DNA of 64,000 bases, taken from positions 192,001 to 256,000 of the forward strand of contig JAWAKK010000001.1 of assembly GCA_038887515.1 (NCBI GenBank). Direction: 5' to 3'. The stretch comes from Candidatus Nezhaarchaeales archaeon (GTDB taxonomy: Archaea > Thermoproteota > Methanomethylicia > Nezhaarchaeales > WYZ-LMO8). This document shows, piece after piece, positions 40,804-64,000 of this stretch (positions are counted from its first letter, which is position 1; each line of letters opens with the position of its first letter). A model generated the notes under the pieces. That model did no database searches. It was not told the origin of the DNA and saw only the letters and a program-made list of their open reading frames with translations. The translations under genes were made by a program, and so were the position numbers.

Positions 40804-40804
40804 G

Positions 40805-48374: not shown

Positions 48375-49277
48375 TTAGAAGCGCGATATTTTAAATCTCG
48401 GGTGAGTTGATGGCGGACGTTTTCCATCTTCCATCAGTACTTGACCATAGGCTGCGCTTATAATAGCTATCGCGGGAACAATGAATTCTGCTTCGTGTAT
48501 AGGACCGAAGAACACGAAGTCCCCTCCAATGGCTATTGGCAACCCACTTACGATTGCGGAGCAGGCAGCTGTTAGAGCTATGTTCTTTTTCTGTTTGAGA
48601 GACCTCCACAGTGCAATAGCGTTGTGAGCTCCACAGCCACAAGGATAACCGTAGCGGCTCTTAATTTCGTAAATCGCTTTACAAGCTAGCCCGAGCGTTG
48701 CAAGGTCCATCACTACCGTGTCTATCATTATCTTCTCTATCCCAAAGCTCTTCATTTTAGGGATTAAAACGTCGAGTAGCCTTATCCTCTCTTTGTAAGA
48801 TATTATAGCCTTAGAACTGTAGGTAAGTGCGACCGCCGCTTTAAGCCCAACTTCTTTGGCTTTTTGATATACGTGCTCTTTAGTCTCGGGGTTAAAGGAG
48901 TTTAGAAGCGTTCTATCTAGTATTCCAAGTTCTTTAGCGGTTTGTAGACCACTGATAGCAGCTTCATCGGTTACGTAGTCTATCAGTATTGGTATCTTAG
49001 TTGCATCGGCGGCGAACTCTATGCGTCTCTTTGCGTTTTCAGCGTTAGTACAAACTACGTCAAGCATGCATGGAAGTCCAACCTTATCACATACCTCTTG
49101 GTATTTTGCAATTAAGTCTTGCGCGGCTTCCTTATCTATATTGCCGCTCTCGTCCGAAGTTTTATCGTCTTTAAAGAATATACTGCCTATGACCACTGTG
49201 GGGTACTCTCCAGGCTGTCCACCAACTTTGACACCTGCAATGTCAAAGGTCAATTGGTCCTTCTCAAACTTAAACAC
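48375..49277 (-). CDS. mtrH: Stand-alone MtrH/MtgA/MtoA-family methylcorrinoid:tetrahydropterin methyltransferase
   Basis: F.F.K.Q....IAGVKVGGQPGEYPTV..GSIF, ID, NS.N, D..V.D, P.GCG.HNA, GGDF...GPI; no other mtr subunits nearby. Confidence 0.88.
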   Translation of the reverse strand: MFKFEKDQLTFDIAGVKVGGQPGEYPTVVIGSIFFKDDKTSDESGNIDKEAAQDLIAKYQEVCDKVGLPCMLDVVCTNAENAKRRIEFAADATKIPILIDYVTDEAAISGLQTAKELGILDRTLLNSFNPETKEHVYQKAKEVGLKAAVALTYSSKAIISYKERIRLLDVLIPKMKSFGIEKIMIDTVVMDLATLGLACKAIYEIKSRYGYPCGCGAHNAIALWRSLKQKKNIALTAACSAIVSGLPIAIGGDFVFFGPIHEAEFIVPAIAIISAAYGQVLMEDGKRPPSTHPRFKISRF

Positions 49278-49417
49278 AGCACTTAACCCCCAATGTATAT
49301 AACGGAGAGAGTTGCTTCGGCTCGCTTAAAAAGCCTTTCTATAAGCGTAGGGAGGATGAACTCGATGTTAAGCATATTAAGGGCTCAGCATCTTTACATA
49401 ACTCCAGTTGACCATAT

Positions 49418-51331
49418 ATGACGTTAGAACACAAAACCTCTAAAAAAGTAATGGTCCGCTTTGAACCTCAAGGAAGGAAGGTATCAGTAGAGCAGGGGTT
49501 AACAATTTTAGAAGTTGCGCAGAAAGCTGGTGTTGGAATTAGGAGTGAGTGTGGTGGCCGAGGACTATGTGGGAAGTGTTTAGTTGTAGTTGAAGATCAA
49601 TCAAACTTGAACCCGATATCAATTATTGAACTGCAACAAGTACCTAGAGACAAACTTAAGCTAGGATACAGGCTTGCATGTCAAAGCATTGTCAAAGGCG
49701 ATGTAATGATATTCATCCCACCAGAAAGTAGAATGGAAACAAGGAGAATATTAAGTGAGGGGGCTGAAGAGACCTTCATGCTGGATCCGTCAGTCAAGAA
49801 AATTTACCTATCGTTGCCAAAGCCTAGCCTACAGGACGTTACTCCCGACCTAGAAAGACTTTGTTATCTATTGAGTGAAATGGGAATAGTTGGTGTTGAT
49901 ATAGATCATAAACTAATACAGGCGTTGCCATTGATCTTGAGGCAAGCCGACTGGAAGGTTACAATTACCCTATGGATGGATAAAGAAATAATAGCTATAG
50001 AGGAGGGAAATAAGACCAGCGAAATATACGGCATCTCTGTAGATATAGGCACGTCAAAGATTGTCTTACACTTAGTGAATCTTGCTTCTGGTGAAACTAC
50101 CTCCGTAAAATCTATGGAGAATCCGCAAATAGCCTACGGAGAGGACGTCATCTCGAGGATAAGCTATGCCTCCTTCAATGAGGGAGGGTTGAGAAGGTTG
50201 CAAGAAATCGTAGTTGAAGCCATAAATTCGCTCATAGAAGAAGCGTGCCGAGAAGCCGGCGTAAAGAAAGATAACATATATGAGATAACGGTCGTAGGAA
50301 ACACGGCAATGCACCACATCTTCTTGGGGTACTCACCGAAACAGCTCGCTATCGCGCCATACGTCCCAGTTGTTAAGCGGCCGATAAATGTGAAGGCCGA
50401 GTGCCTGAACCTCAAGGTAAACCCGCTGGCCAACGTCCACGTGCTTCCAATTATAGCTGGTTTCGTGGGCGCTGACGCAGTTGCAGATGTTTTGGCTACG
50501 AGAATTTATGAACTCGATGAAATAAGCTTGCTAATAGACATTGGGACTAACAGTGAAGTCTTCGTAGGTAATAGGGAGGATATAATTTCATGCTCATGCG
50601 CTGCCGGCCCAGCATTCGAAGGGATGCACATAGAGCACGGTATGAAGGCGGTGACGGGAGCTATCGAGAAGGTTAGGATAGACCCTAAAGACTATGAGGT
50701 GGACTATGAAACTATCAATAGTGCTAAGCCTATAGGGATTTGTGGCTCAGCGATAATAGATGCCATTGCCGAGATGTTTAAGTGCGGGATAATAGATAGC
50801 CGCGGACGCTTCAAACGAGACGTCCAATCAAAGCGCTTACGTAGCGAGAATGGTAGGCTAAAATTTGTGATAGCTTGGAGGGAGGAGACCGGAACTGGCC
50901 ACGATATAACCATTAGCGAGAGGGATATACAAGAAATCATATTAGCGAAGGCGGCAATACGTACTGGTATATCGATACTAATGAAGGAGAAGAATTTGAA
51001 GGAAAAGGACTTAGATCGCATATACGTTGCCGGAGCCTTTGGAAACTACTTAAACCCTGAAAGCGCGTTATTCGTAGGCTTATTCCCCGATGTCGACTTA
51101 AGCAAGATAAGATTCGTCGGCAACGCAGCAATAACTGGAGCAAAGCTTTGTCTACTTTCAAAGAATATGAGGAAAAGCGCTGAATACCTTTCAAACACCA
51201 TCCGCTACGTCGAGCTAACGATACATCCGGACTTTCATAGAGAATTCGTCGAGGCCCTTTTCATTCCACATCGAGATATAAACAGGTACCCGACCGTAGC
51301 GAGGTATTTGGGCAAAAAATTAACCACCTAG
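49418..51331 (+). CDS. ATP-dependent corrinoid reductive activator (RACo/MtoD type: N-terminal [2Fe-2S] plus ASKHA/DUF4445)
   Basis: CGGRGLCGKC...RLAC, DIGTSK, NPQ..YG.DVISR, GNTAMHH, DIGTN.E, AGPAFEG, GICGS, AGAFG, GNAA. Confidence 0.93.
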   Translation: MTLEHKTSKKVMVRFEPQGRKVSVEQGLTILEVAQKAGVGIRSECGGRGLCGKCLVVVEDQSNLNPISIIELQQVPRDKLKLGYRLACQSIVKGDVMIFIPPESRMETRRILSEGAEETFMLDPSVKKIYLSLPKPSLQDVTPDLERLCYLLSEMGIVGVDIDHKLIQALPLILRQADWKVTITLWMDKEIIAIEEGNKTSEIYGISVDIGTSKIVLHLVNLASGETTSVKSMENPQIAYGEDVISRISYASFNEGGLRRLQEIVVEAINSLIEEACREAGVKKDNIYEITVVGNTAMHHIFLGYSPKQLAIAPYVPVVKRPINVKAECLNLKVNPLANVHVLPIIAGFVGADAVADVLATRIYELDEISLLIDIGTNSEVFVGNREDIISCSCAAGPAFEGMHIEHGMKAVTGAIEKVRIDPKDYEVDYETINSAKPIGICGSAIIDAIAEMFKCGIIDSRGRFKRDVQSKRLRSENGRLKFVIAWREETGTGHDITISERDIQEIILAKAAIRTGISILMKEKNLKEKDLDRIYVAGAFGNYLNPESALFVGLFPDVDLSKIRFVGNAAITGAKLCLLSKNMRKSAEYLSNTIRYVELTIHPDFHREFVEALFIPHRDINRYPTVARYLGKKLTT

Positions 51332-51566
51332 GATTGGGCAGTTCTTTTGGAAAGGCTTCGAATTTTATGTTAACAAAGAAGTTTATCGTCCAAAGCTTAC
51401 AGTTATCCGTTTGACTTTTTATAGATGCCTAGACTTACGTTAAATTGATCGTTGAGTCGCTTAACTAATGCTTGCAATCGGCATCCTACATTGATCGTTA
51501 AAAGCGTAAAAACATATTTAAATGTAAAATGAGCGTAAAAAGTAAACCCCCAGGAGGTTCAGTAAA

Positions 51567-52232
51567 ATGTGTCCTACTATCGAAAATGAACTAAAAGAAT
51601 TATTGAAAGCAATAGTGGATCTCGAAGAGGGCAGGGCTATCGAAATAACGAAGAGGCTCGTAGAGTCCGGTGTAGACCCAGTAAGGATACTGGATTGCGT
51701 TCGAGAAGCATCTGAAGAGATAGGGAAGAGATTTGAAAGCGGAGAGTACTTCGTGGCCGACTTAGTGATGGCAGGAGAGATATTGAAAGGAATAAGTGAA
51801 ATAGTGAGACCTAAGCTCAAAGAGTTTGGGAAGTCCAGAGAAGTAATAGGTAGACTATTAATAGGAACTGTTGAGGGAGACATACATGACATAGGTAAGA
51901 AGATCGTTATAACGATGGCTGAAGCCGCTGGGTTCGAAGTCCTCGATATAGGGGAAGATGTGCCCCCACAGAAGTTTGTTGAAGCGATAAAGGAGTTCAA
52001 CCCCGACATAGTTGGAATGTCCGGTTTACTTACGCTAGTAATAGACTCAATGAAGAGGACAGTCGACGCAATAAAGGCTGCAGGTCTTAGAGACAAGGTG
52101 AAAATAATAATCGGAGGTGGAAGGGTGGACGAGCATGCCAAGGAATACACCGGCGCAGATGCTTGGACAAACGATGCTGCGTCGGGAGTAAGAACGATGG
52201 TGAAATGGATGGAGGAGAGGAAAAGGAAATGA
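51567..52232 (+). CDS. Corrinoid (B12-binding) methyl-carrier protein, MtoC/MtaC-like
   Basis: Helical cap (G..FE.GEYF..DL) plus GTVEGDIHDIGK (DxHxxG), SGLL, IIGG; GGAGG RBS. Confidence 0.95.
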   Translation: MCPTIENELKELLKAIVDLEEGRAIEITKRLVESGVDPVRILDCVREASEEIGKRFESGEYFVADLVMAGEILKGISEIVRPKLKEFGKSREVIGRLLIGTVEGDIHDIGKKIVITMAEAAGFEVLDIGEDVPPQKFVEAIKEFNPDIVGMSGLLTLVIDSMKRTVDAIKAAGLRDKVKIIIGGGRVDEHAKEYTGADAWTNDAASGVRTMVKWMEERKRK

Positions 52233-53497
52233 TTAAGGAACCCATAGACGAAATGAGAGAGAGACAGAAGAAAGAGCCCGAAGAGGTCCTGAAAGAGAGG
52301 GCCACAATATTTGAAGCAGCGGTAGATCTTAAAGAGCCCGAAAGAGTTCCATTGCTACTACTTTCATGTGGTCACCTGCTCGGTAAGTATTACAAATTAA
52401 GCGAGATATTCTTCAACTACGATACATTAAAGAAGGCTTCACTAAAAGTCATCGAAAACTTCCCAGCAGACTTATTTGCACCGGTACCTGCCGCCGATGG
52501 CTTCATATTTTCAGTAGCCTTCGCAGATTACCCCGATCTCTCACCCGTAGTCCGCTTCATAGCGGGACCTATACACGACATTTTGGGTGATAAATACACT
52601 CGATGGCCTGGAAGGGAGCTTAGCGAGAACACTACTTTTCAGTTTATAGGTGGAAAGTTCATGGAGGTCGAAGAGTACGACAAGCTTATTGAAGACCCAA
52701 TAGGTTTCATAAATGAGGTAGTGGTGCCTAGAGTTTGCACAAACCTAGCTAAACCAGGTATATCTAGGTACGCGACGTATGCTAGACTCGGCATAGCTGG
52801 TCGAGACTTCCTATTTAACGGTATGATAGGGACAAGCATCGAGCTAACTAAGGTCGGCATACCACCAATTCCGCTTACGTCTGCTTATGCCCCGCTAGAC
52901 GTCATAAGTGACTTTATGAGGTATCCAACTAATATGATGCTCGACTTACGTAGGTACCCTGATAAAGTTAAGAGTGCTACCGAGGTGCTGGTTGAGCCAA
53001 TAATCAAGATAGCGATGGCACTTAAGCCAGCAGGAGCGAAATTTGCTTTCATTCCGCTACATTTAAATGAGATGCTTCCTCCAAAGCTTTACAACGAGTT
53101 CTACTGGCCCTACTTAAAGGAAGTAATAGTGAGACTTTACCAAAACGGTATAAGGTCATACATTCTTTTTGAAGGGAACCACATGCCCCACTTAGAGACG
53201 ATACTTGAGTTACCTAAAGGATGGGGTCTCGGGGTCTTTGAAAAAGGCGATATAAAGAAGATTAGAGAAACCTTAAAGGGACATACTTGCGTTGCCGGAG
53301 GCATCCCCATATCGTTGCTCCTGCAAGCCACTCCGGACAAAATAGATAGTTACGTCAAAGAATTGCTTGCAGACCTAGCTCCAGGTGGAGGCTTCATACT
53401 TGGGCCAGGTATAGGCGAAATACCAGCCGAAGTACCGGATGCCAATTTAAGGGCACTGGTCAACGCAGCACTAAAGTATGGTAGATATAAGAGGTAA
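52229..53497 (+). CDS. URO-D-fold substrate:corrinoid methyltransferase (MT1), MtoB/O-demethylase-like
   Basis: EPERVP, P.D...D..R.....DL...PDKV, F.PLH, FYWP.LK, FEG, LPKG, GGGFI; lacks the MtaA HxC Zn motif; ATGA overlap with the corrinoid gene (start 52229). Confidence 0.8.
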   Translation: MIKEPIDEMRERQKKEPEEVLKERATIFEAAVDLKEPERVPLLLLSCGHLLGKYYKLSEIFFNYDTLKKASLKVIENFPADLFAPVPAADGFIFSVAFADYPDLSPVVRFIAGPIHDILGDKYTRWPGRELSENTTFQFIGGKFMEVEEYDKLIEDPIGFINEVVVPRVCTNLAKPGISRYATYARLGIAGRDFLFNGMIGTSIELTKVGIPPIPLTSAYAPLDVISDFMRYPTNMMLDLRRYPDKVKSATEVLVEPIIKIAMALKPAGAKFAFIPLHLNEMLPPKLYNEFYWPYLKEVIVRLYQNGIRSYILFEGNHMPHLETILELPKGWGLGVFEKGDIKKIRETLKGHTCVAGGIPISLLLQATPDKIDSYVKELLADLAPGGGFILGPGIGEIPAEVPDANLRALVNAALKYGRYKR

Positions 53498-53669
53498 TCA
53501 ATTCTTTAACCTTCACATTTTTATCCTCCAAAGGGCGATATAGCCGGTTAACCTAGACTTTAACCTTTTAAGTCGTCCATCTTTTCTTACCCCCTAAGAC
53601 CATAAGATCGTGGTTCTTTCCTTCAGACAAGGATTGAAGAAGTTGAAGACAGAAATTATTCTTTTTTTA

Positions 53670-53684
53670 GAAAAAGCTTATAAA
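53670..53684 (+). promoter_or_regulatory. BRE-TATA promoter for the CocE-like/symporter unit
   Basis: GAAAAAG-CTTATAAA ending about 32 nt upstream of ATG 53717. Confidence 0.5.
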
Positions 53685-53716
53685 AATTTCGACACCAACA
53701 ATTCTTCGTGGTATAA

Positions 53717-55627
53717 ATGTTCGTAAAGAGAGGAGTACACGTTTACAGGGGTAACGAGTATCATCAAAGGCTCCACGATTACGATGAGGCTATAAGACCC
53801 CAGAAGATAAGCTTGGAGACTTGGGGAAAAATTAAGGACAAGATAGAATGCGTGTACTTCCTTGGATACCCTGAAATATCGAAGGAACCTGAAAGTCGAC
53901 CACAATATAAGGTTAAGGTAGAGAAGGACGTTATGATACCTGTGAGGGATGGGGTAAAGATAGCAGCTGACGTCTATAGACCGGATGCAGAGGGCAAGTT
54001 TCCAACGATCTTGTCGTTCGGTAGCTGGGGCAAAGATATATGTGAAATGGTCATGTGGTTGCCTCCTCAGCAGTATCAGCCAGACACACCTTTCTGGGCC
54101 GGGAACCTTGAAGCCGGTCCTATACCTTATCTCGTTGAGCGTGGTTACGTAGTAGTAGTCCCTGATCCTAGAGGATGGAAGCTATCAGGTGGAGAGATAG
54201 ACGTATTTGTTGAAACTATGTTCAATGATTGGCCTCGGGATATATACGACATAATCGACTGGATAATAAAGCAACCCTGGTCTAATGGCGTAGTAGGAAT
54301 GATGGGAGAATGCATATATGGTGCAGCTCAAATATTCGCTGCAGCACTAGCCCCTCATCCAGCCCTTAAGGCTATAGCTCCTTGGGAATTCGTAGGCGTG
54401 CTGGTAAGCGACGTCAATTTTACTGGTGTAGTACATACGATGCTCTACAGCATCTTGACTAATAGGCACGTAAACGACTCAAATGCTTGGCCGAGATGTA
54501 AGCTGAGACCTTGGGCCTTTAAGCATTTAAGCAAAGACGAGGTAGAAAACAGATTAAAGGAACTACTTGAACATCCCGACATCAAGTACAACGCAAGGTA
54601 TTATGGAGTCCTACAGTATCCCGACATGGATCCTGCAGGCTTCATGGTTGATGGGCTAATGTTCTGGTTACATCCACCTCCTCCTGGAAAAGAGTTCCCG
54701 ATAAACGACAACTTCCCTTACGATAAGATAAAGATACCAGTATATCTCAACACACCGTGGAACGTCGTAGTATACATATGGGACACATTCTATGCTTACG
54801 AGAAGGTGGGCTCTAAAGCTAAGAAGTTGTTCGTCTCTATACCAAGAGAGATGAGAAGACCTTGGGTTGACTATCCCGAAGAGATTCTTAGATGGCACGA
54901 CTACTGGCTCAAAGGCATAGACACGGGAATCGTTGATGAACCGCCCGTCAAGCTGTTCGTTACAGGAATAAACATGTGGAAGTTCGAAAGAGAATGGCCT
55001 CCAGCTAGAGCAAGTTATACGAAGATTTACTTGCATCCAGGAGGTTGCTTATCGTTCGAGAAGCCTCCAGCAAACTCGCCCCCAGACTACTTCGTACAGC
55101 ATCCTCTCTACGAGGACCCAACAGTTTACGCGATGTTCTATACGTCAGAGCCTCTAAAAGAGGAAATAGAAGCCATAGGTCCCGTAGAGTTGATACTTGA
55201 GGCTAGCATAGACGGTGACTTCACGAACTGGATCATCGACTTAGTTGATATATCTCCATTAGGAGAAGCGCAGGTTCTAGGTCAAGGATGGCTTTGCACG
55301 TACTTCAGGGAAATTGATGAAGCAAAGTCTAGGCCTGGATGGCCTCGATATAAGAGGACGCATGCTAAACCAACACCTCGCAACGAGAAAATAAGGTATA
55401 GGATAGCATTAATGCCTATTGCCCACGTATTCCAAGTTGGCCATAGAATACAGGTTATAGTTAGAAACCAAGACGACCTGCTGAGCATAGACGGCTTGAT
55501 AAGGGACTACATACTCCCAAGAATGGAGAAAGTCACTCACACGATATACTACGGAGAGTCAGCATTGCTGCTACCTATAGTACCTAAACCGAGAGAGAGG
55601 ATCGTAATAGCGGAGGGACTAGCCTAA
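53717..55627 (+). CDS. CocE/NonD (X-Pro dipeptidyl-peptidase-like) alpha/beta-hydrolase-fold protein with atypical active site
   Basis: VMIPVRDG..IAADVYRP, RGYVVV..DPRG...S.G, QPWSNG.VGM.G, RW.DYWLKG, EWPP, C-terminal jelly-roll (F..GHRI). Confidence 0.9.
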   Translation: MFVKRGVHVYRGNEYHQRLHDYDEAIRPQKISLETWGKIKDKIECVYFLGYPEISKEPESRPQYKVKVEKDVMIPVRDGVKIAADVYRPDAEGKFPTILSFGSWGKDICEMVMWLPPQQYQPDTPFWAGNLEAGPIPYLVERGYVVVVPDPRGWKLSGGEIDVFVETMFNDWPRDIYDIIDWIIKQPWSNGVVGMMGECIYGAAQIFAAALAPHPALKAIAPWEFVGVLVSDVNFTGVVHTMLYSILTNRHVNDSNAWPRCKLRPWAFKHLSKDEVENRLKELLEHPDIKYNARYYGVLQYPDMDPAGFMVDGLMFWLHPPPPGKEFPINDNFPYDKIKIPVYLNTPWNVVVYIWDTFYAYEKVGSKAKKLFVSIPREMRRPWVDYPEEILRWHDYWLKGIDTGIVDEPPVKLFVTGINMWKFEREWPPARASYTKIYLHPGGCLSFEKPPANSPPDYFVQHPLYEDPTVYAMFYTSEPLKEEIEAIGPVELILEASIDGDFTNWIIDLVDISPLGEAQVLGQGWLCTYFREIDEAKSRPGWPRYKRTHAKPTPRNEKIRYRIALMPIAHVFQVGHRIQVIVRNQDDLLSIDGLIRDYILPRMEKVTHTIYYGESALLLPIVPKPRERIVIAEGLA

Positions 55628-55637
55628 AGATTAGGAC

Positions 55638-55769
55638 ATGATGGGGTTGGTGTACATGATATATTGGGAATGGTTGCTTGGATGGGAAGGCCTAGCCTTC
55701 TACGTACTGATAATATTGTGCATCATAGGGGCATTGGCCTTAAGAAAAGGCAAGAAGCGAGGAGGATGA
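55638..55769 (+). CDS. Small single-TM accessory protein of the sodium:solute symporter (not in ORF track)
   Basis: (MMGLVY)MIYWEWLLGWEGLAFYVLIILCIIGALALRKGKKRGG-stop; GGTG precedes ATG 55656; its 3' end contains the GGAGG RBS of the symporter. Confidence 0.65.
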   Translation: MMGLVYMIYWEWLLGWEGLAFYVLIILCIIGALALRKGKKRGG

Positions 55770-55773
55770 AAAT

Positions 55774-57315
55774 ATGGAAATTAGGTATGATATATTGATA
55801 CCAACAATGGTATACTACTTCATAGCCACCATAGGTTTTGGTCTCTACTATCGCAAGAGATATGGTAAAGCTGCATACGACTTCGCTTTGGCGAGCAGAA
55901 CTCTACCGTGGTGGCTAGTTTTCACAGGCGCTGTCCTCATACCTTTCGGAGGGGGGCATACCGTATCGCCAGCCGAGGCTACATGGGCTTTCGGTGTTGG
56001 CCCACTGTTATGGCCCATCTTGGGCGCCGTTCCCTCGCTCTTGTTGCTCTTCTTCGTTACTGGTAGAATCATGAGGGGAATAGGTGCTAGAACCGTCGGT
56101 GAGGCTATGGAAATGACTTTCGGCCCTACGGCAAGGATTCTACTGGCGGTCACGACATGCCTCCACATGATGATTATAGCTGGTCTAGAACTTTATGGCA
56201 CAGCCTCGGCAATCTACGGGTTTACAGGGTTCGAATACGCATTCTGCATAGTCATAGCTTTCGTCTTAATCATAATATACACATTCTTCGCGGGCGTAAT
56301 GCAAGCCTCGGTACTCAATGCTATTAACCTTGCAGTCTACTACGTAGGCTTCATATTAGCGTTCGTAGCCTTAACCTTCTGGCTTGCACCTATCGGCGGT
56401 TGGGATGCTGCCGCCCAAGCGATAGTTCAGCGTATGGGCGATGCGGGGGTAACACTGTTCTCTAGTAGAGCAGCTGAGATGATAGCAATCCTCGGCATAC
56501 CTATAGCTATATCCCACATAGCTGCCGTCACGGTATGCCAAGGAGCCGCTCAACCCGTTCTATCAGCAAAAGATCCAAAGGAGATAATTAAGGGATGGCC
56601 CCTACTCATAATATTTAACGGCCTTGCCCCCATAATATGGGTCATCGCAGGTCTCTTAGCCTTCTCAGCGCCAGCTTCCCTTTATGGCGGGGCCGCAACA
56701 CTCATAGAAAATATGAGGGCTCAAGGGTTAGCCGTGCCAGCGACTATAGTCACAATAACACAGCTATGGCCTGCCGCCGCCGCGGCACTATTAATGGCAC
56801 TATTAGCTGCAACGCTGTCTACAGCCGGGGCCTTCTGTTTAGGTGCTGCTACGTCACTAACTGAGGACATAGTTAGGCGCTTCTTAAAACCGGATATGAG
56901 CGAGAGAAGTGCAGTAACACTGATGAGGCTCCTAATAGTGTTAACTGGAGTCATAGCGCTAATAAGCGCCTTCCTGAAACCATTCTTGATGGCTGGCTTC
57001 ATCTGGATATTTACGTTCTACATACCTCTATTCGTATCGTTCATACTAGGGCTCGCTTGGAAGAGAAACGAAAAAGCAACAATAGCGACCACCATGATAA
57101 GCTGGGCCATAAATATACTATGGATACTCTTCAAGCCGGTAATAGAGCAGACGATGCCAATATACTTACACCCAGCTATGGGTAACGTCTACCCAGTCAC
57201 GATAGCCTCAATAATAGTATACGTAGTTCTAGTACTAGTAATGAAAGGAACTAAACCGGGCCTACTTAAAGAAATTAAAGGTACCGCCGTCGAACAAGCC
57301 ATAGTAAAACCATAA
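55774..57315 (+). CDS. Sodium:solute symporter (SSS/PutP family)
   Basis: DF.LA.R.LPW, GGG, about 13 TM helices, SAKD, LAA.LST, W.R.N...A. Confidence 0.9.
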   Translation: MEIRYDILIPTMVYYFIATIGFGLYYRKRYGKAAYDFALASRTLPWWLVFTGAVLIPFGGGHTVSPAEATWAFGVGPLLWPILGAVPSLLLLFFVTGRIMRGIGARTVGEAMEMTFGPTARILLAVTTCLHMMIIAGLELYGTASAIYGFTGFEYAFCIVIAFVLIIIYTFFAGVMQASVLNAINLAVYYVGFILAFVALTFWLAPIGGWDAAAQAIVQRMGDAGVTLFSSRAAEMIAILGIPIAISHIAAVTVCQGAAQPVLSAKDPKEIIKGWPLLIIFNGLAPIIWVIAGLLAFSAPASLYGGAATLIENMRAQGLAVPATIVTITQLWPAAAAALLMALLAATLSTAGAFCLGAATSLTEDIVRRFLKPDMSERSAVTLMRLLIVLTGVIALISAFLKPFLMAGFIWIFTFYIPLFVSFILGLAWKRNEKATIATTMISWAINILWILFKPVIEQTMPIYLHPAMGNVYPVTIASIIVYVVLVLVMKGTKPGLLKEIKGTAVEQAIVKP

Positions 57316-57333
57316 CCTTTTTCCCTCTTTTTG
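57316..57333 (+). terminator. Oligo(T) archaeal terminator candidate
   Basis: Pyrimidine tract with two T-runs immediately after the symporter stop. Confidence 0.45.
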
Positions 57334-57762
57334 TTAATGGTAAGTAATAGTAAGCAATAGATGGACTTTTATTTATGTGAACAAAAATAGTTAATGAGAT
57401 ATATGGGAAGCACTTTTAAGCAGGAGCCTTTGGCCTCTTAGCCTCCTTACTCAAGGCTTTATATCCAACCCAGAACCATATGTTTACTACCCAAAGCAAT
57501 ATTAGGGTCTCTACGAAGAGACTTAATGGCAACGGAATACTCAAAATTCTTCCCCCACAAAAAGGTTTGGTAAAGTGATTTATAAGACTTGTCACGACAC
57601 TAAACTCTAAATTTCATGGGTTAAGAAGAAAACTTACGTGAAAACTCCTAAGTAACGGTTAAATGAAAGCTTTACGTCTTATGTGATAATGGTTTCTTAG
57701 CAAAGTTTAAATAAGGTTCTGAAGTCGATAAAGAGAAGAAGCTTTCCCCTCTAAGTAAGGCG

Positions 57763-58509
57763 ATGATAAACTATTGGGTGCAACGCATGCTTGAAGGAAA
57801 AGGGTTATCAAAATATTTCGGTAAACTAGCAGCAGTTAAAGATGTTAACTTCAAGATATGCGAAAGGGAAATAGTGGGCCTCATAGGTCCAAATGGTTCC
57901 GGAAAAACGACTTTATTTAACGTAATATCAGGATTCTACAAACCGGAAACAGGTAAAGTCTTCTTCATGGGGAAAGACATAACAGGTCTTCCCCCTTTTA
58001 AGATATGTAGAATGGGTATTGCAAGGACGTTTCAACTTATTAGGCCCTTCTTGACCATGACGGTGCTTGAGAACGTAATGGTTGGTAGCCTATATGGCGC
58101 CGGTAAGGGTATGATTACTAGTCGAGAAGAAGCCATGGAACTCCTCAAATTCGTCGGGTTAGACAAGAAAAAAGACGTCTTAGCAAGCCAGCTTAACCTT
58201 TGCGAGCGAAAATTCCTTGAAATCGCGAGGGCCTTAGCTACGAAACCTAAGGTGCTTTTACTTGATGAACCATTAAGCGGTCTAAACCCTACGGAGATAC
58301 TTCAAGCAAGAGAACTAATCAGAAAAATTAGGGACGACTTCGGAATTACAGTGTTTTGGGTAGAACACATAATGAAGGCCCTAAGAGGAGTCGTTGAAAG
58401 AGTCATCGTATTGAATTATGGAGAGAAGATAGCCGAGGGCCCCCTCGAAGAGGTCACGCGAGACCCTAAGGTCGTAGAAGCTTACTTAGGAGAGAGGTGG
58501 ATGATCTAG
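57763..58509 (+). CDS. livG: LIV-type ABC transporter ATP-binding protein
   Basis: GPNGSGKTT, GIARTFQ, LLDEP..GLN, VEH, V.EAYLG; start may be ATG 57787. Confidence 0.92.
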   Translation: MINYWVQRMLEGKGLSKYFGKLAAVKDVNFKICEREIVGLIGPNGSGKTTLFNVISGFYKPETGKVFFMGKDITGLPPFKICRMGIARTFQLIRPFLTMTVLENVMVGSLYGAGKGMITSREEAMELLKFVGLDKKKDVLASQLNLCERKFLEIARALATKPKVLLLDEPLSGLNPTEILQARELIRKIRDDFGITVFWVEHIMKALRGVVERVIVLNYGEKIAEGPLEEVTRDPKVVEAYLGERWMI

Positions 58510-58518
58510 GTGATATGA

Positions 58519-59226
58519 ATGCTTGAAGTACAAAACGTAGACGTATTTTACGGAGAGCTGCAAGTCCTATGGGGTGTTTCGTTAAAGGTTGAGAAGGGCG
58601 AGATAGTTGCATTGATAGGTCCTAATGGAGCAGGCAAATCAACACTATGCAAGTCGGTCATAGGCTTGCTCCGCCCAAAGAACGGCACCATCACATTCAT
58701 GGGCAAGCGGATAGACAACTTATCAACGCCAGACATAATAAGGCTCGGAATATCCATAGTACCAGAGGGTCGAAGGCTCTTTGGAAACATGACAGTAAGG
58801 GAAAACCTCGAACTTGGAGCATACGTTTCCGAGGTCAGAAAGAACATAGGTGAACAGCTTGAATGGGTCTTCAACATATTCCCCATATTAAAGGAAAGGC
58901 AGAATCAGCTTGCAGGAAGTTTGAGCGGTGGCCAGCAACAGATGTTGGCTATAGCGAGAGCTTTGATGTCGAAACCTAGGTTCCTAATACTCGATGAGCC
59001 GTCGCTCGGTTTAGCACCGAAAGTTGTGCTCACAGTTTATGAAATTATAAGGAAGTTGCGCGATGAAGGGGTAACCATACTTCTAGTCGAGCAGTATGCT
59101 AGTCAAGCTTTGAAGAACTCCGATAAAGCTTTCATACTTGAAAATGGGAGGATCGTTGGTTGGGGGGCGTCAGAAAACCTTCTTAAAGACGAACGTGTTA
59201 GGAAAGCTTACTTAGGAGAGGAGTAG
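58519..59226 (+). CDS. livF: LIV-type ABC transporter ATP-binding protein
   Basis: GPNGAGKST, VPEGRRLF, LSGGQQQMLAIARALM, DEPSLGLAP, VEQ. Confidence 0.94.
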   Translation: MLEVQNVDVFYGELQVLWGVSLKVEKGEIVALIGPNGAGKSTLCKSVIGLLRPKNGTITFMGKRIDNLSTPDIIRLGISIVPEGRRLFGNMTVRENLELGAYVSEVRKNIGEQLEWVFNIFPILKERQNQLAGSLSGGQQQMLAIARALMSKPRFLILDEPSLGLAPKVVLTVYEIIRKLRDEGVTILLVEQYASQALKNSDKAFILENGRIVGWGASENLLKDERVRKAYLGEE

Positions 59227-59227
59227 C

Positions 59228-60112
59228 ATGTCTGTTCCTGGACTTACAGACTTATTAAGCATAGGAAACATAGTAGTCAACGGCTTGCTCCTTGGCGGTC
59301 TATTCGCATTAATAGCGTTTGGATTATCGGTATTCGTGGGAGTCATGAGGGTTATAAACATAGCTCACGGAGACTTTGCAATTTTATCAGCATACTTTGC
59401 GCTATCAATAATGTTATTCCTAAGAGTTGATCCTTTCATAAGCTTAATAGCCGTTGTACCGATAATGTTCGTGGTGGGCTACGCCTTTCAAAGGTTCATA
59501 ATAAATAGGCTACTCCCCATGGGAGCTAACCAACCTGTCATAGCGACTTTTGCACTAAGCATCGTAATACAAAATCTATTACTCTTGACTTTCACAGCGG
59601 ACGCCCGAAGCCTGATAGTTCCCTACTTACTAGAGCCCCTAGAATTCTTTGGAATAAGCATTTCACGACGCTACGGGGTGAGCTTCCTTACTGCCCTTAT
59701 AATGTTCGTGGCTATATACTTCTTCCTTAAGAAGACTTATACCGGCAAGGCTATGCGAGCGGTGCCATTTGATATCGAAGCTGCGAAAATGCTTGGAATA
59801 AGGCCCTTCTCGATCTATAATTTTGCGGCAGGCTTCGCTATGATTGCGGTAGCTGTTGCAGGCGTGCTGTTAGGTATGGTTTTCACATTTTACCCCGATA
59901 CGGGCCCGATGTTCCTATTATTGTCTTTCGGAGCCGTAGTGGTCGGGGGCGTTGGAAGCCTAAAGGGAACTCTCATAGGAGGCATAATAATGGGCGAAGC
60001 ACTGGTCCTGGGAGGATACTTGGGTTCACACTACCAGTTAATGTTTTGCTACCTAGTAATATTAGCAATCCTAATAGCAAGACCTCAAGGAATCTTCGGG
60101 GAGAGGTTCTAA
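59228..60112 (+). CDS. livH: LIV-type ABC transporter permease
   Basis: NGL..G...AL.A.GL....GV..VIN.AHG, T..GKAMRAV, VVGG.GS..G, RPQG.FG. Confidence 0.92.
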   Translation: MSVPGLTDLLSIGNIVVNGLLLGGLFALIAFGLSVFVGVMRVINIAHGDFAILSAYFALSIMLFLRVDPFISLIAVVPIMFVVGYAFQRFIINRLLPMGANQPVIATFALSIVIQNLLLLTFTADARSLIVPYLLEPLEFFGISISRRYGVSFLTALIMFVAIYFFLKKTYTGKAMRAVPFDIEAAKMLGIRPFSIYNFAAGFAMIAVAVAGVLLGMVFTFYPDTGPMFLLLSFGAVVVGGVGSLKGTLIGGIIMGEALVLGGYLGSHYQLMFCYLVILAILIARPQGIFGERF

Positions 60113-60113
60113 G

Positions 60114-61064
60114 ATGTCCATACTAAAATTTGAGCTTAAACGAAACTATGTTTACATAGTAGTCGTAATAGCAATACTTGCATCCCTACCTATGTGGGTA
60201 GGCGGCTTTTTGAGAGATGCATTGATACTCTTCTTCTTATACCTTGCTGCTGCTGAGGTCTGGGGCTTTATGGCTAAGCACGCCGGCATGGTTTCTCTAG
60301 GTCAACAAATTTTCATAGGAATTGGAGGCTATATGACTGCGGTCCTATGTATGTATGAGGGCCTGCCGTTGTGGGCTAGTGTTATAGTCGCCGCCTTAAT
60401 AGGGAGTGGATTGGCAGCAGCCCTCTCCTTTCCGTTGTTAAGGTTGCGCGGCATTTACTTCTCGATAGGCTCCTTCCTTACAGCTGAAATTATTAAGTTA
60501 ATCTTCAATAGCTGGGAGTACGTTGGCGCCGGTAAGGGGCTAATATTTGTCGGAGCCTACGGTATACCCACGACAGTAATCTACTACCCTGCCATGGTTA
60601 TCGGTCTGTCCTCTATGTTCTTAATATATTACTTGTACCATTCAAAGCTAGGCTTCGGCCTTAGAAGCATAGGAGCTGATGAAGATGCTGCCGCTAGCCT
60701 TGGCGTTGACACATTTAGATGTAAAGCTCTCCTCTTCGTCTTTTCCGGCTTCATTACAAGCTTAGTGGGAGCAATAAATGCAATCCACCATACCTATCTA
60801 CATCCAACTTCAGCATTCAACATACTTTGGACGGTAAGCTTCCTATTCGTAGCGGTCCTGGGAGGACTTGGAACGATAATTGGGCCAGTTATCGGAAGCG
60901 CTATCTTTACGGCTTTAACATACTTGTTCTCTATGTACATTGGGCTAAGCCTGCTACTAGAGGGATTGGTCGTACTCGTTATATTACTGGTAGTTCCAGG
61001 AGGAATTTGGGGCTCCATAGCAAAGAAGTTGAGATACAAGATAAAACTAAAAGAACCCCTCTAA
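60114..61064 (+). CDS. livM: LIV-type ABC transporter permease
   Basis: G.VSLG...F.G.GGY, RLRG.YF.I, S..G..LR.I..DE.AA..LGV, GG.GT..GP..G. Confidence 0.92.
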   Translation: MSILKFELKRNYVYIVVVIAILASLPMWVGGFLRDALILFFLYLAAAEVWGFMAKHAGMVSLGQQIFIGIGGYMTAVLCMYEGLPLWASVIVAALIGSGLAAALSFPLLRLRGIYFSIGSFLTAEIIKLIFNSWEYVGAGKGLIFVGAYGIPTTVIYYPAMVIGLSSMFLIYYLYHSKLGFGLRSIGADEDAAASLGVDTFRCKALLFVFSGFITSLVGAINAIHHTYLHPTSAFNILWTVSFLFVAVLGGLGTIIGPVIGSAIFTALTYLFSMYIGLSLLLEGLVVLVILLVVPGGIWGSIAKKLRYKIKLKEPL

Positions 61065-61136
61065 TGGTTCATAATTGAAGGAGCTCGATGATTACCCGGT
61101 AATAAAACTTTTATTCTTTTTCATTACTATATTCTA

Positions 61137-62507
61137 TTGATTCTTATGAAGAAGACGTATGCTGCAATCATTGCTATAGTGGTCGTTGTCGTCGTTATTG
61201 TTGCGGGCGTTGCCGCCTACTTCTTAACCCTACCTCCACCAGGTCCAGCTGCCCCCGAGTACATAAAGATCGGCTGGCCAGTCCCATTAACTGGGGGCAT
61301 AGCAGCCTTCGGAGAGCCAGATCCTTGGATTGCTAGACAAATCGAGGATTACGTTAACAACGTTATGGGCGGCGTTTACTTAGCTGAGTACGGTAAGAAG
61401 GTCCCGATAAAGATCATTATGAGGGATACTAAGAGCGATCCTAATACTGCTGCTTCAGTTGCTGCTGAGCTAATAACTAGAGAGAACGTAGACTTAATGG
61501 TAGTCCTACACACGCCCGGAACAGTTAACCCGGTAACGGGGCAATGTGAGAGGTACGGGGTACCATGCATAGCTCTCGATTGTCCCGTGCTCTCATGGCT
61601 TGAAGGTGCTCCTTACAGGTGGTCGTACTTAGCGTTCTGGACTGAAGTCGACGTAGCCCACGTTTTTGTGGGGATATGGGACTCCTTGGGAGACAAGACT
61701 AACAAAGTTGTTGCAGGTCTATGGAGCGATGATCCTGACGGCAGGACGTTCCGAGAACTAACAGTTAAGCTGGCAAGGACACGGGGATATAGAGTTATAG
61801 ACTCCGGCTTAGTGCCCTACGGCACCTCCGATTTCAGCACATACATTGAAGAGTGGAAGAGAGCTGGAGCAGAAATACTTACTGGGAACTTTATTCCACC
61901 AGACTTTGCTACTCTCTGGAGGCAATGCCGTGAGCGCAGCTTTGTACCTAAAGTCGCTACAATAGGAAGGTCAGTTCTCTTCCCAGCTCAAGTAGAGGCC
62001 CTAGGAGGCGACTTAGGGGTCGGCCTGACAACTGAAGTATGGGTGCACGTGGTTTCTCCATTCCATTCATCGCTGACTGGCCAGACTCCAAGAGACCTAG
62101 CTGAAGCATACGAAAAAGCTTCGGGCAAACAGTGGAGTACGCCGTTAATATTCTCGCACGCGGCTTTCGAGCTAGTGGTCGACGTTCTTAAGAGGGCTGG
62201 TAGCTTGGATAAGGAGAAGGTTAGGGTGGCTATTGCGAATACTGACTTGGATACCATTGTTGGTCACATAAACTACAAGAAGCCGTTAAAGGAGATACTT
62301 AGCCCCGAAGAGTATGCAATCTACCAAGAATATCCGAAGTTGGTACAATACCAAGACCACTACTCCATAACTCCAGTCATCGGCGGACAGTGGGTTAGAG
62401 GGACGAAGTGGCCGTTCGAGCTCGAAGTAATCTACAACTGGAAGTACGGCAACATACCAGAAACAGCACCAGTAAGGCTTATACCCGAACTTCTCGGCAG
62501 AACATAA
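61137..62507 (+). CDS. LIV-type (PBP1) ABC substrate-binding protein, TM-anchored
   Basis: IKIG...PLTG..A.FG, D.KSD...A, DFS, PPDF, D.DTIVGHI. The ligand cannot be read from sequence; this family includes aromatic-acid binders. Confidence 0.88.
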   Translation: MILMKKTYAAIIAIVVVVVVIVAGVAAYFLTLPPPGPAAPEYIKIGWPVPLTGGIAAFGEPDPWIARQIEDYVNNVMGGVYLAEYGKKVPIKIIMRDTKSDPNTAASVAAELITRENVDLMVVLHTPGTVNPVTGQCERYGVPCIALDCPVLSWLEGAPYRWSYLAFWTEVDVAHVFVGIWDSLGDKTNKVVAGLWSDDPDGRTFRELTVKLARTRGYRVIDSGLVPYGTSDFSTYIEEWKRAGAEILTGNFIPPDFATLWRQCRERSFVPKVATIGRSVLFPAQVEALGGDLGVGLTTEVWVHVVSPFHSSLTGQTPRDLAEAYEKASGKQWSTPLIFSHAAFELVVDVLKRAGSLDKEKVRVAIANTDLDTIVGHINYKKPLKEILSPEEYAIYQEYPKLVQYQDHYSITPVIGGQWVRGTKWPFELEVIYNWKYGNIPETAPVRLIPELLGRT

Positions 62508-62527
62508 ATCTTCAGAAACTTCATACT

Positions 62528-62580
62528 ATTTTTTTGTGTAAAGTCTTAGAGAGAAGAAAATTTTCTTCTCTTTTTTTTAA
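62528..62580 (+). terminator. Oligo(T) terminator candidates after the LIV operon
   Basis: Runs of 7-8 T at about 62529 and 62571. Confidence 0.45.
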
Positions 62581-62635
62581 ATTTTATCCATGAAATTTAA
62601 TCATGCTACTTCTTTTTTTCACTACTTATTGAGAG

Positions 62636-62651
62636 GTGCAAACCTTAAATA
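62636..62651 (+). promoter_or_regulatory. BRE-TATA promoter for the AthL-like gene
   Basis: GTGCAAAC-CTTAAATA about 28 nt upstream of GTG 62680, consistent with a leaderless or short-leader transcript. Confidence 0.45.
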
Positions 62652-62679
62652 CTCACTTCATGTCCCTTACCTATTTATT

Positions 62680-64000
62680 GTGGGAACCTTGCCTGAACCT
62701 GAGACCGGTTTTGGTATATTATTGCCTGACGGTACTAGGCGATGCACTGGCTGTACTGTCGGCGGACCAGTGTTCGCCTACGTCAAAGACGGAAAGATAA
62801 CTAGGGTGACGCCAATCGAATTCGGGCCAGACGATGCTGAAAGCTGGGAAATAGAGGCTAGAGGGAGAGTCTTTAGACCTCCTCGAAAGGCACTTGTAGC
62901 GCCATACGTCTTGTCTGTTAGGAGCAGAATTTACTCGCCCGAAAGGCTACTGACGCCCATGAAGAGGATTGACTTTGATCCTGACGCTCCACCTGACAAG
63001 AGAAAGCAAGAAAACAGGGGGAAGTCGGGTTACGAACCTATAACTTGGGAAGAAGCTCTAGAGATAGTTGCCAACGAGATAGAGAGGGTTAGGAGGCAGT
63101 ACGGACCTGAAGCGATTGCCGCTACAGCAGATTCTCACTACGAGTGGGGCAACATACACTATAGGCATAGCACTCGCTTTAGGTTCTTCAACTTACTTGG
63201 TTTCACTTACGTAGATCATAACCCTGATAGCTGGGAGGGATGGCATTGGGGAGCAATGCACATGTGGGGCTTCAGCTGGAGGTTGGGTATCCCCGAACAG
63301 TACGATCTATTGTGGGACGCATTAAACCACTGCGACATGATCGTGTTCTGGAGTGCAGACCCGGATACGAATAGAGCTATAGGCTATCAAGGATATGAGT
63401 CAGCCCCCTGGAGGCTTTGGCTTAAGGAGCTCGGAGTCAAGGTCGTGGCTGTAGATCCGTTCTACAATTGGACAGCCCACATTATGTGGGCCGACAAGTG
63501 GTTTGCCCCTAGACCCGGTACCGATACTGCGCTGGCGGCAGCAATAGCCTATGTATGGATAACGGAGGATAGATACGACAAGAAGTTCGTTGAGACTAAA
63601 TGTTATGGATTTGACGAATTCAAGAAGTACATCCTCGGAGAAGCCGATCATACACCTAAGACCCCCAAGTGGGCTGAAGAACTGACCGGAATACCGGCTC
63701 GAGAAATAGTGGCGCTTGCTAGAGAGTGGGCTTCGAAGAGGACGATGCTAGCCGCTGGAGGTCTAGGTGGTTGGGGCGGAGCGTGTAGGAGTGCATATGG
63801 TCATGAGTGGGCCAGGTTCATGGTTGCTCTTGCCGCAATGCAAGGCATCGGAAAGCCGGGAGTCAACATTTGGGGTACTACGCAAGGCGCCCCCGTTGAC
63901 TGCACGTTCTTCTTCCCAGGATACGCTGAAGGTGGTATCTCGGGAGACCCCGTGAAGAGCGCTGCCTTCAAGAACCTATTAGCTCGCGGAATGACTAAGA
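62680..64000 (+). CDS. athL: Molybdopterin oxidoreductase, pyrogallol-phloroglucinol transhydroxylase large subunit (AthL)-like; truncated by the right window edge, not in ORF track
   Basis: Manual translation from GTG 62680/TTG 62689 is open to the edge: GGPVFAYVKDGKITR..W.IEARG..F.PPRK..PMKR.DFDP..SHYEWGNIHYRHS..HNPDSWEGWHWGAMHMWGFSWRLG.PEQYDLL..GGLGGWGGACR..GKPG.N.W.TTQG.P..FPGYAEGGISGD. Confidence 0.9.
   Translation, partial: MGTLPEPETGFGILLPDGTRRCTGCTVGGPVFAYVKDGKITRVTPIEFGPDDAESWEIEARGRVFRPPRKALVAPYVLSVRSRIYSPERLLTPMKRIDFDPDAPPDKRKQENRGKSGYEPITWEEALEIVANEIERVRRQYGPEAIAATADSHYEWGNIHYRHSTRFRFFNLLGFTYVDHNPDSWEGWHWGAMHMWGFSWRLGIPEQYDLLWDALNHCDMIVFWSADPDTNRAIGYQGYESAPWRLWLKELGVKVVAVDPFYNWTAHIMWADKWFAPRPGTDTALAAAIAYVWITEDRYDKKFVETKCYGFDEFKKYILGEADHTPKTPKWAEELTGIPAREIVALAREWASKRTMLAAGGLGGWGGACRSAYGHEWARFMVALAAMQGIGKPGVNIWGTTQGAPVDCTFFFPGYAEGGISGDPVKSAAFKNLLARGMTK

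Follow-up and report, generated by a model that had tools for sequence, protein, structure and literature searches.

Does an archaeon that carries the genes to strip methyl groups from methoxylated aromatic compounds also go on to degrade the ring, and are the two activities coupled? The question is raised by the end of a 64,000-nucleotide stretch of DNA (the window, G000:C1:192001-256000, where G000 is the studied genome and C1 its contig) from a Candidatus Nezhaarchaeales archaeon, in which a methyl-transfer cassette of the Mto type is followed by a CocE-family hydrolase, transporters and the gene for AthL, the large subunit of a molybdenum enzyme resembling pyrogallol transhydroxylase. The source is a hot-spring archaeon of the Nezhaarchaeota lineage; its genome comprises 1.29 Mb in nine contigs (94% complete, 1.4% contamination), and the sole run holding the DNA of the stretch is labelled hot springs metagenome. 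The initial annotation of this DNA had read the block as an island coupling O-demethylation to ring processing, and the open reading frame (ORF) listing, Pfam and NCBIfam place all eight of its gene types where it had located them. Its interpretation holds in part: the evidence for the ring-processing half is far stronger than could have been foreseen, through AthL with its partner AthS and through a gene cluster elsewhere on the contig, the O-demethylase half is plausible, and the linkage between the two is not conserved.

The AthL gene begins at 62590 on the + strand, is cut by the window end with its first 470 residues inside (62590-64000), and continues to G000:C1:257316. The full-length protein has 908 aa and carries the AhtL-like_1st and Molybdopterin domains (PF21423, PF00384, PF01568); translation probably begins at the GTG of position 62680 (residue 31), because relatives align only from residues 33-51. 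AthS, which had been predicted to lie beyond position 64000, is indeed present directly 3' of AthL, where it begins 4 bp downstream (G000:C1:257320-258162, +), and its 280 residues comprise a 4Fe-4S dicluster domain (Fer4_11) and a CarboxypepD_reg-like domain. Among solved structures, AthL matches the large subunit of the Pelobacter pyrogallol hydroxytransferase (4v4c_A) with 1074.6 bits and ∼57% identity, the alignment covering AthL residues 51-907 (857 residues) and chain residues 6-869, while the second-best match is a DMSO reductase with 287 bits. AthS matches 4v4c_B with 229 bits over its full length (residues 2-278 against 2-274), including the C-terminal CarboxypepD_reg-like domain.

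The active-site columns of AthL were compared in an alignment of 26 family members. Residues H183, Y191, R192, D213, S214 and Y445 of the G000 protein correspond to H144, Y152, R153, D174, S175 and Y404 of the Pelobacter enzyme, and all six are identical; we take these to be the Mo-ligand Ser together with substrate-contacting residues of the active site. Of the 17 sequences with at least 61% identity (G000 counted in), 16 retain the Y-R pair, and all eight paralogues of 36-43% identity have T-P, T-Q or T-M there; in two further AthL-family rows (27-28% identity) these positions are unaligned. Since the G000 protein keeps the columns and the paralogues lose the Y-R pair, it shows the signature that marks the characterised enzyme and its orthologues. 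The AthL-like label of the initial annotation is borne out by this grouping, and AthL/AthS is most likely a molybdenum-bis(molybdopterin guanine dinucleotide) (Mo-bisMGD) transhydroxylase that would isomerise pyrogallol to phloroglucinol.

A quick IQ-TREE phylogeny, with SH-aLRT support only, places G000 AthL with Bathyarchaeia sequences (support 99) and apart from a clade of G005, G009 and Nezhaarchaeales sequences (support 100); G005 and G006 are genus-mates of G000, and G009 is a further genome in the comparison. On this placement, the AthL gene of this hot spot did not simply descend together with its neighbours. It also bears on substrate, as the true AthL group comprises three or more sub-clades that are 60-65% identical to one another, and AthLS might be a transhydroxylase or hydroxylase for a different polyphenol, such as another tri- or tetrahydroxybenzene. 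An identity of only 57% to the characterised enzyme, the placement with Bathyarchaeia and not with genus-mates, and the abundance of uncharacterised paralogues among these archaea (3-8 in each Bathyarchaeia genome) are in keeping with such an activity. We nevertheless consider it improbable, given that all six checked columns match Pelobacter, that the Y-R pair sets the group apart from its paralogues and that the same genome holds a cluster of the phloroglucinol type.

The family is unevenly distributed. AthL-family genes occur in seven of nine family-mates of G000 (E ≤ 1e-50), with near-orthologues (63-65%) in three, and no match to the family was obtained in the 31 searched genomes of other families. 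Near-orthologues are rare across the phylum, being found in 5 genomes of a phylum-wide sample of 251 (E ≤ 1e-200). Four Bathyarchaeia genomes (G041-G044, via L038, L040, L043 and L045; L-numbers denote fetched loci or contigs) hold 3-8 AthL-family genes each, comprising near-orthologues (60-77%) and paralogues (38-43%), several of which lie near second cyclase paralogues (55-58%). In two genomes (L019 of G005 and L021 of G009) the small-subunit match ends at residue 192-193 of 280, short of the CarboxypepD_reg-like domain, and in G001 it is full length. Further Mo-enzyme genes adjoin AthLS of G005 (L020, G005:C1:1265001-1285000): one AthL paralogue (43%) comes with a small subunit of its own, another family member is 28% identical, and several of the ORFs there are unmatched in G000.

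The initial annotation had proposed a search beyond the window for genes of phloroglucinol reduction and ring cleavage. A cluster resembling the phloroglucinol pathway is present on the same contig: searches within the genome return a single cyclase-family gene and a single BKACE gene, 4 kb apart and ∼320 kb downstream. They belong to a seven-gene cluster (L009:8039-14547), with genes for the cyclase, a short-chain dehydrogenase/reductase (SDR) and a cupin on the - strand and genes for CoA-transferase subunits A and B, BKACE and a 3-hydroxyacyl-CoA-dehydrogenase-like protein on the + strand. According to the available text of the paper on the Clostridium scatologenes pathway (PMC10470551), phloroglucinol is degraded there by enzymes of the SDR, cyclase, dehydrogenase and BKACE families, with a CoA-transferase and a thiolase also clustered. 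The family composition of the G000 cluster agrees with that pathway, and two thiolase-family genes are found elsewhere in the genome. The same seven families are clustered in two Bathyarchaeia genomes (L115, L116), with 56-78% identity to G000. We therefore consider it likely, from gene content and homology, that the genome encodes an AthLS-dependent route from trihydroxybenzene to acetyl-CoA.

Several observations speak against so specific an assignment. The SDR has generic matches only, with no chain named PGR in the best 60 of its 176 PDB matches, and BKACE stays below the NCBIfam cut-offs, both for Kce, its best model (257 against 382), and for 3,5-dioxohexanoate:acetyl-CoA acetone transferase (213 against 430). 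The PDB matches of the cyclase are limited to kynurenine formamidase and isatin hydrolase, both distant. In the genus-mates, BKACE, dehydrogenase and cupin are kept (82-93%) without cyclase, SDR or CoA-transferase at that locus, a cyclase being found there only as a 28% paralogue; the three conserved genes may therefore also serve another pathway. Finally, a genome search for enzymes of the UbiD, LpdC or VdcC type returned no convincing gallate decarboxylase in G000. The UbiD-type decarboxylase anticipated by the initial annotation is thus represented by two candidates, both of which we rejected: one is a generic UbiD, and the other resembles VdcC but scores 260 bits where the cut-off is 650, has no B or D partner subunits nearby and is flanked by an MFS transporter and a rubrerythrin-like gene.

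Other genes surround the cluster. Within 8 kb lie genes for an Amidohydro_2 protein, an aldehyde:ferredoxin oxidoreductase (AOR), a DAPG_hydrolase protein and a paralogue of the substrate-binding protein of the window (G000:C1:584793-589881; L009:16793-19768; L121:1779-3881). The DAPG/phloretin-hydrolase homologue matches the full DAPG_hydrolase profile with 160.9 bits. A Fig. 8 legend in the phloroglucinol paper (PMC10470551), in the text available, labels DAPG_hydrolase as phloretin hydrolase. These cluster-side genes hint at a possible use of acyl-phloroglucinols (phloretin) and aromatic aldehydes. The Amidohydro_2 family includes hydroxybenzoate decarboxylases; nothing specific to that activity was seen in this gene. 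The cupin (118 aa; G000:C1:577930-578286, equal to L009:9930-10286) is conserved in the archaeal clusters, with 62-64% identity to its Bathyarchaeia counterparts (L115:12516-12854 and L116:5038-5376), and the word cupin does not occur in the available text on the bacterial pathway (PMC10470551). The cupin match in G005 consists of two pieces overlapping by four query residues, and the gene may be broken there. Just past the BKACE-dehydrogenase pair of the same genus-mate, L102:12368-12733 matches the last 123 residues of SSS2, a symporter encoded next to AthS in G000, with 81% identity; this piece may be a remnant, or the rest may be hidden by the 35% identity filter.

The other half of the question concerns the methyl-transfer genes, all four Mto components of which lie in one cluster. 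The MtoA-type methyl-corrinoid:pterin methyltransferase of the MtrH family (MT2; 300 aa) is encoded at 48375-49277 (-; PF02007, 208 bits). It scores 264 bits with an NCBIfam MtrH-family subfamily model, below the cut-off of 287, and shares 81% identity with its counterpart at this locus in G006. The MtoD-type reductive activator of the RACo/AcsV type (49418-51331, +; 637 aa) has an N-terminal 2Fe-2S domain (Fer2) together with RACo_linker, Raco_middle and RACo_C_ter domains, reaches 565 bits with the AcsV model (cut-off 800) and is 70% identical to its G006 counterpart. The MtoC-type corrinoid protein (51567-52232, +; 221 aa; B12-binding_2 and B12-binding) is likewise 70% identical to G006 and 64-80% identical to proteins of other archaeal cassettes. 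The URO-D-fold methyltransferase I (MT1, of the MtoB/MtvB type; PF01208) is encoded at 52205-53497 (+) in the database gene call of 430 aa, with an alternative ORF start, TTG, at 52163; it is single-copy in G000.

The MT1 stands apart from the rest of the cassette. Its best relatives are 68% identical and come from two Thermoproteota metagenome-assembled genomes (MAGs), and it is only 51% identical to the MT1 of the same cassette in G006. Likewise, orthologous cassettes in QNVF01000004 and JAAOZJ010000009 (L051, L080) share 68-81% identity with G000 in MT2, activator and corrinoid protein, and only 48-51% in MT1. In the part of Welte et al. available, QNVF01 and JAAOZJ01 are among the archaea with mtoABC homologues, at an identity of at least 35% to MtoABCD of Archaeoglobus fulgidus. 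Named relatives of the MT1 at 50-69% are archaeal MAGs (Desulfurococcaceae, Thermoprotei, Bathyarchaeia, Methanomethylicia, Ignisphaera and Nezhaarchaeales), followed by Bacillota of the Tepidanaerobacter group at ∼52%. In a FastTree phylogeny of 107 MT1 sequences, G000 falls in a Thermoproteota clade of nine rows (support 100), separate from the clade of G006, whose row is identical to one titled Candidatus Nezhaarchaeota. Sister to the archaeal part of the main group (all 47 of its archaeal rows) is a Bacillota/Atribacterota clade, likewise of 47 rows, which includes a MAG of Tepidanaerobacter acetatoxydans; this species grows on syringate, and its MT1 proteins are 40-44% identical to MtoB1/2, according to the available text of PMC13564433.

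The substrate of the MT1 is less easily read. Models for MtaA and CmuA (NCBIfam) match it weakly, and its sole solved relative is CdmB (PDB 9rui; 201 bits, ∼33% identity counted in the alignment), described in the CdmB paper, as far as its accessible text goes, as a chloromethane methyltransferase of Acetobacterium dehalogenans that is nearest to archaeal MtoB (31%) and yet does not convert methoxylated aromatics. This relatedness to the MT1 families places the protein in the MtoB/MtvB/CdmB branch of URO-D-type MT1 enzymes, and since CdmB is close to MtoB and has a different substrate, specificity cannot be read from family membership, which tells against assigning an O-demethylase on homology. 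A methyl donor other than an aryl ether, either a haloalkane as for CdmB or another small compound, would accommodate these data. We hold this to be very unlikely, because the distance to CdmB is no closer than the published one between CdmB and MtoB, the same paper finds archaeal CdmB homologues in Sigynarchaeales alongside mecE-like genes, a context not present here, aromatic-catabolism genes are neighbours both here and beside the Bathyarchaeia relatives, and the Bacillota sister clade includes a syringate-utilising genus. From its context, the most likely reading of the MT1 is that it is probably an aryl methyl ether O-demethylase.

The methyl group released by such an enzyme could be used in two ways. 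The initial annotation had noted cofactor biosynthesis genes for tetrahydromethanopterin (H4MPT) in the window, and these are present as a gene for the MfnA tyrosine decarboxylase (35330-36511, -; 419 bits) and one for a dihydromethanopterin-reductase-like flavoprotein (30380-31162, -), the latter just below its cut-off with 232 bits against 251. G000 contains two MtrH-family genes, the one in the window and a canonical one at G000:C1:115816-116700 (-; 419 bits), and CdhC of CO dehydrogenase/acetyl-CoA synthase (CODH/ACS) is present. Therefore, with CODH/ACS, MtrH-family and cofactor genes in hand, methyl-H4MPT could enter acetyl-CoA synthesis or be oxidised. The alpha subunit of methyl-coenzyme M reductase (MCR) had no match in the 94%-complete genome; the canonical MtrH is present although MCR alpha is unmatched.

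We then consider whether the two halves belong together. The island is a mosaic. In G006, the upstream genes and the MT2-activator-corrinoid protein cassette are collinear with G000 (67-81%), and past the MT1 there are no G000 counterparts; in G005, the his operon (69-86%) adjoins AthS and AthL (55% and 62%), and past AthL there are again no G000 counterparts. The CocE gene is found in none of the nine family-mates, and the CocE gene, the first SSS symporter gene (SSS1) and the ABC importer genes are confined to G000 within its family.

The linkage of Mto and AthLS genes, for which the initial annotation had asked that synteny be examined in relatives, is not conserved in other genomes. We collected 75 MT1 loci from species genomes, none of them from Archaeoglobus or Methermicoccus, and AthL within 10 kb was seen in 0 of the 75, the adjacency being found only in G000. 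Genus-mates carry one module or the other: G005 (95% complete) has AthLS and no MT1 match, and G006 (93% complete) has the Mto cassette and no AthL match. G009 has both AthLS and an MT1, on different contigs, and the genome with the closest MT1 (68%; completeness not given) shows no AthL, cyclase or BKACE match. Gaps of 147-448 bp between genes, together with a T-rich stretch 5' of AthL, also suggest that the block may comprise several transcription units. Taken together, these points weigh against a single functional island.

A reading that accommodates them is that two unrelated catabolic modules happen to lie side by side in a variable region, the Mto cassette harvesting methyl groups with excretion of the ring, as in A. 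fulgidus and Methermicoccus shengliensis, and the CocE-ABC-AthLS genes handling free or esterified trihydroxybenzenes from tannins or flavonoids. Each module stands alone at the same locus in a genus-mate (Mto in G006, AthLS beside the his operon in G005) with flanks beyond that are unlike G000, gaps of 220-448 bp separate the units, and a 16-kb metagenome contig (L113) has CocE-ABC-AthL genes without the Mto cassette: there, a CocE orthologue (81%) and a 32% paralogue are flanked by two sets of LIV ABC genes and two AthL gene ends (82% and 75%). Set against this, the genes from the activator through SSS2 lie on one strand throughout, with no unrelated gene in between. Moreover, 4 of the 75 loci have homologues of ring-pathway genes (dehydrogenase, cupin, SDR or CoA-transferase) at a distance of 1-3 kb from the paired genes for MT1 and corrinoid protein. 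These four loci are not independent, because all are from Bathyarchaeia, but the same genomes have 3-8 AthL-family genes, and O-demethylation and ring catabolism therefore co-occur in archaea. We judge the chance juxtaposition of unrelated modules to be rather unlikely, though a serious alternative.

The adjacency could also have arisen in the assembly. Only one DNA run contains the stretch. In its unitigs the assembly graph loses continuity within the substrate-binding-protein gene (61176-62299), where it is split into short pieces with a depth of 25-51×, against 15.6× to the left and 17.8× to the right. The genome has two paralogues of this gene, at G000:C2:61130-62498 (70% identical in amino acids) and at C1:588577-589875 (57%, near the phloroglucinol-type cluster), and one of them shares a 402-nt stretch at 87% identity. 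The join between Mto-CocE-ABC and AthLS therefore rests on the path of the original assembler through this gene, a further point against the island, and a misjoin through the repeated gene would explain the break. The short pieces, however, tile the window sequence without differences between flanks of like depth, the paralogues are only 74-87% identical in DNA, and both flanks are syntenic with genus-mates. LIV ABC genes beside AthL also recur on independent contigs, AthLS adjoining such genes in three hot-spring Bathyarchaeia loci; on a second metagenome contig, the CocE gene (72%) adjoins ABC genes. An artefact of this kind is, in our estimate, extremely improbable.

The genes between the two modules may serve hydrolysis and uptake. 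The CocE/NonD-family protein (53717-55627, +; 636 aa) scores 214 bits with TIGR00976 (cut-off 66) and consists of an N-terminal alpha/beta-hydrolase domain and a PepX_C domain. The position of the nucleophile Ser in the G-x-S-x-x-G elbow, aligned with the nucleophile of cocaine esterase and the Ser of 3ib3, is occupied in this protein by Cys199. A 16-row alignment has Cys in nine rows and Ser in seven, the Ser rows being the more distant (41-48% identity). The protein is therefore a putative thiol-type ester hydrolase, and that it frees a phenolic acid or polyphenol from an ester is purely an inference. SSS1 (55774-57315, +; 513 aa; PF00474) is 46% identical to SSS2 (G000:C1:258481-259971, +), which lies 3' of AthS. 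Between SSS1 and AthL, a five-gene LIV-type ABC importer (57763-62507, +; Pfam and NCBIfam) comprises two ATPases of 248 and 235 aa (57763-59226, +; ABC_tran, BCA_ABC_TP_C), two permeases of 294 and 316 aa (59228-61064, +; BPD_transp_2; LivH/LivM/UrtB/UrtC-like, all below NCBIfam cut-offs) and the substrate-binding protein of 456 aa (61137-62507, +; Peripla_BP_6, 138 bits). The binding protein has weak PDB matches only (E = 6e-10 to 2e-6), which are uninformative on its ligand.

We propose that the end of the window forms a composite catabolic region of three units placed head to tail, a scheme in which each substrate and each flux is predicted from the observed gene content, homologies, active-site columns and synteny. 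In the first, Mto-type unit, MT1 would move a methyl group from its substrate onto the Co(I) form of the corrinoid protein, the MtrH-like MT2 would pass it to H4MPT, and the RACo protein would re-reduce inactive Co(II). The second unit would provide hydrolysis and uptake through the Cys-nucleophile CocE hydrolase, the SSS symporter and the LIV-type ABC importer, and in the third AthL/AthS would convert pyrogallol to phloroglucinol. The region 320 kb away would then most likely take phloroglucinol to acetyl-CoA, in the order SDR reductase, cyclase-family ring-opening hydrolase, 3-hydroxyacyl dehydrogenase, BKACE lyase, CoA-transferase and a thiolase encoded elsewhere. For the composite region as a whole, this is the explanation toward which we lean. 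Its weakest link is the functional coupling implied by adjacency, and whether the demethylated product of MT1 is in fact consumed by AthLS must be regarded as a possibility that is somewhat doubtful.

All of the parts are of known kinds, and the novelty lies in finding them, and finding them together, in archaea. As in Pelobacter, AthL and AthS are encoded by two adjacent genes, for a large Mo-bisMGD subunit and a small 3×[4Fe-4S]-type subunit with a C-terminal beta-barrel-like domain, both matching over their full length. The predicted transhydroxylase of G000 differs in its archaeal host, in its setting beside a CocE hydrolase, transporters and an H4MPT-linked cassette, and in its sub-clade with hot-spring Bathyarchaeia. 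The Mto cassette has the same four component families as MtoABCD of M. shengliensis and A. fulgidus, whereas its MT1 belongs to another archaeal sub-clade than that of the genus-mate, ring-catabolic genes adjoin it, and its neighbours are SSS and ABC transporters, where the papers, in their available text, describe MFS transporters. The phloroglucinol-type cluster shares with that of C. scatologenes (PGR, DPGC, HOHDH, TAL) the co-location of SDR, cyclase, 3-hydroxyacyl-dehydrogenase, BKACE and CoA-transferase genes, with a DAPG/phloretin-hydrolase homologue near; it differs in the conserved cupin of the archaeal clusters and in that the G000 SDR and BKACE reach no specific model. With CdmBCA of A. 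dehalogenans the cassette has in common the URO-D/TIM-barrel fold of the MT1, a corrinoid protein and an MT2, but identity is about one third, the G000 MT2 is of the MtrH type for H4MPT whereas that of CdmBCA is a tetrahydrofolate (H4F) enzyme, and the G000 context is one of aromatic catabolism. The CocE protein, finally, shares the alpha/beta-hydrolase and PepX_C architecture of cocaine esterase and CocE/NonD hydrolases and exceeds the family cut-off, but its sub-family has Cys199 in place of the nucleophile Ser that distant members keep.

In the experimental work on archaea, as far as Welte et al. is available, A. fulgidus and M. shengliensis take methoxylated aromatics no further than O-demethylation, which yields the hydroxylated derivatives. 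The statement in the initial annotation that these archaea release the ring is accurate for such growth experiments; a 2023 paper, however, already reports, in a one-line mention in the accessible text, a phloroglucinol gene cluster in Archaeoglobus genomes. A search of the accessible text of a Bathyarchaeia preprint for "ring", "benzoyl-CoA" and "phloroglucinol" returned nothing, and our literature search found no paper claiming an archaeal pyrogallol transhydroxylase; database records already name Bathyarchaeota proteins as such transhydroxylases. The prior description that we found, within the source text available, thus consists of database annotation and the one-line Archaeoglobus mention only.

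An Mto cassette, an AthLS homologue and a phloroglucinol-type cluster together give a testable route by which an archaeon could completely degrade tannin, flavonoid and syringyl monomers at high temperature, a type of ring breakdown that has until now been characterised in bacteria only. That hot-spring Bathyarchaeia have the same genes suggests a trait common to a guild. We tentatively suggest that this Nezhaarchaeota-lineage organism and hot-spring Bathyarchaeia might ferment or oxidise methoxylated and trihydroxylated plant aromatics (of the syringate, gallate, pyrogallol and phloretin type) completely to acetyl-CoA, by means of an H4MPT-linked O-demethylase, a Mo transhydroxylase and the phloroglucinol pathway, with genes drawn from a pool exchanged among lineages. 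If this is true, there is archaeal anaerobic ring cleavage that does not proceed via benzoyl-CoA, and the use that archaea make of lignin and tannin monomers goes beyond the removal of methyl groups.

Some features of the block and its surroundings complete the description. Past SSS2 the gene order is DUF998, serine hydroxymethyltransferase and the his operon. No flanking tRNA gene was found in window positions 38000-64000 or in L001, and GC content across the block is 0.43-0.50 against 0.44 for the contig, with a mild rise only, in the binding-protein, AthL and SSS genes. Two metatranscriptome runs of the same study, ∼3% of each being sampled, gave 0 reads, an outcome that says nothing about expression. 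The segment at 40.1-47.8 kb has no counterpart at the same place in G006. Just 5' of the corrinoid cassette it encodes a Peripla_BP_2 binding protein and a FecCD permease (45643-47741, +), which are BtuF/BtuC-like and would fit corrinoid or iron-chelate uptake. Further upstream (40736-44993, +), a CCG-domain Fe-S protein resembling HdrD/TfrB lies between two GlcD-like FAD-binding proteins, and these genes may encode a lactate or 2-hydroxyacid dehydrogenase complex.

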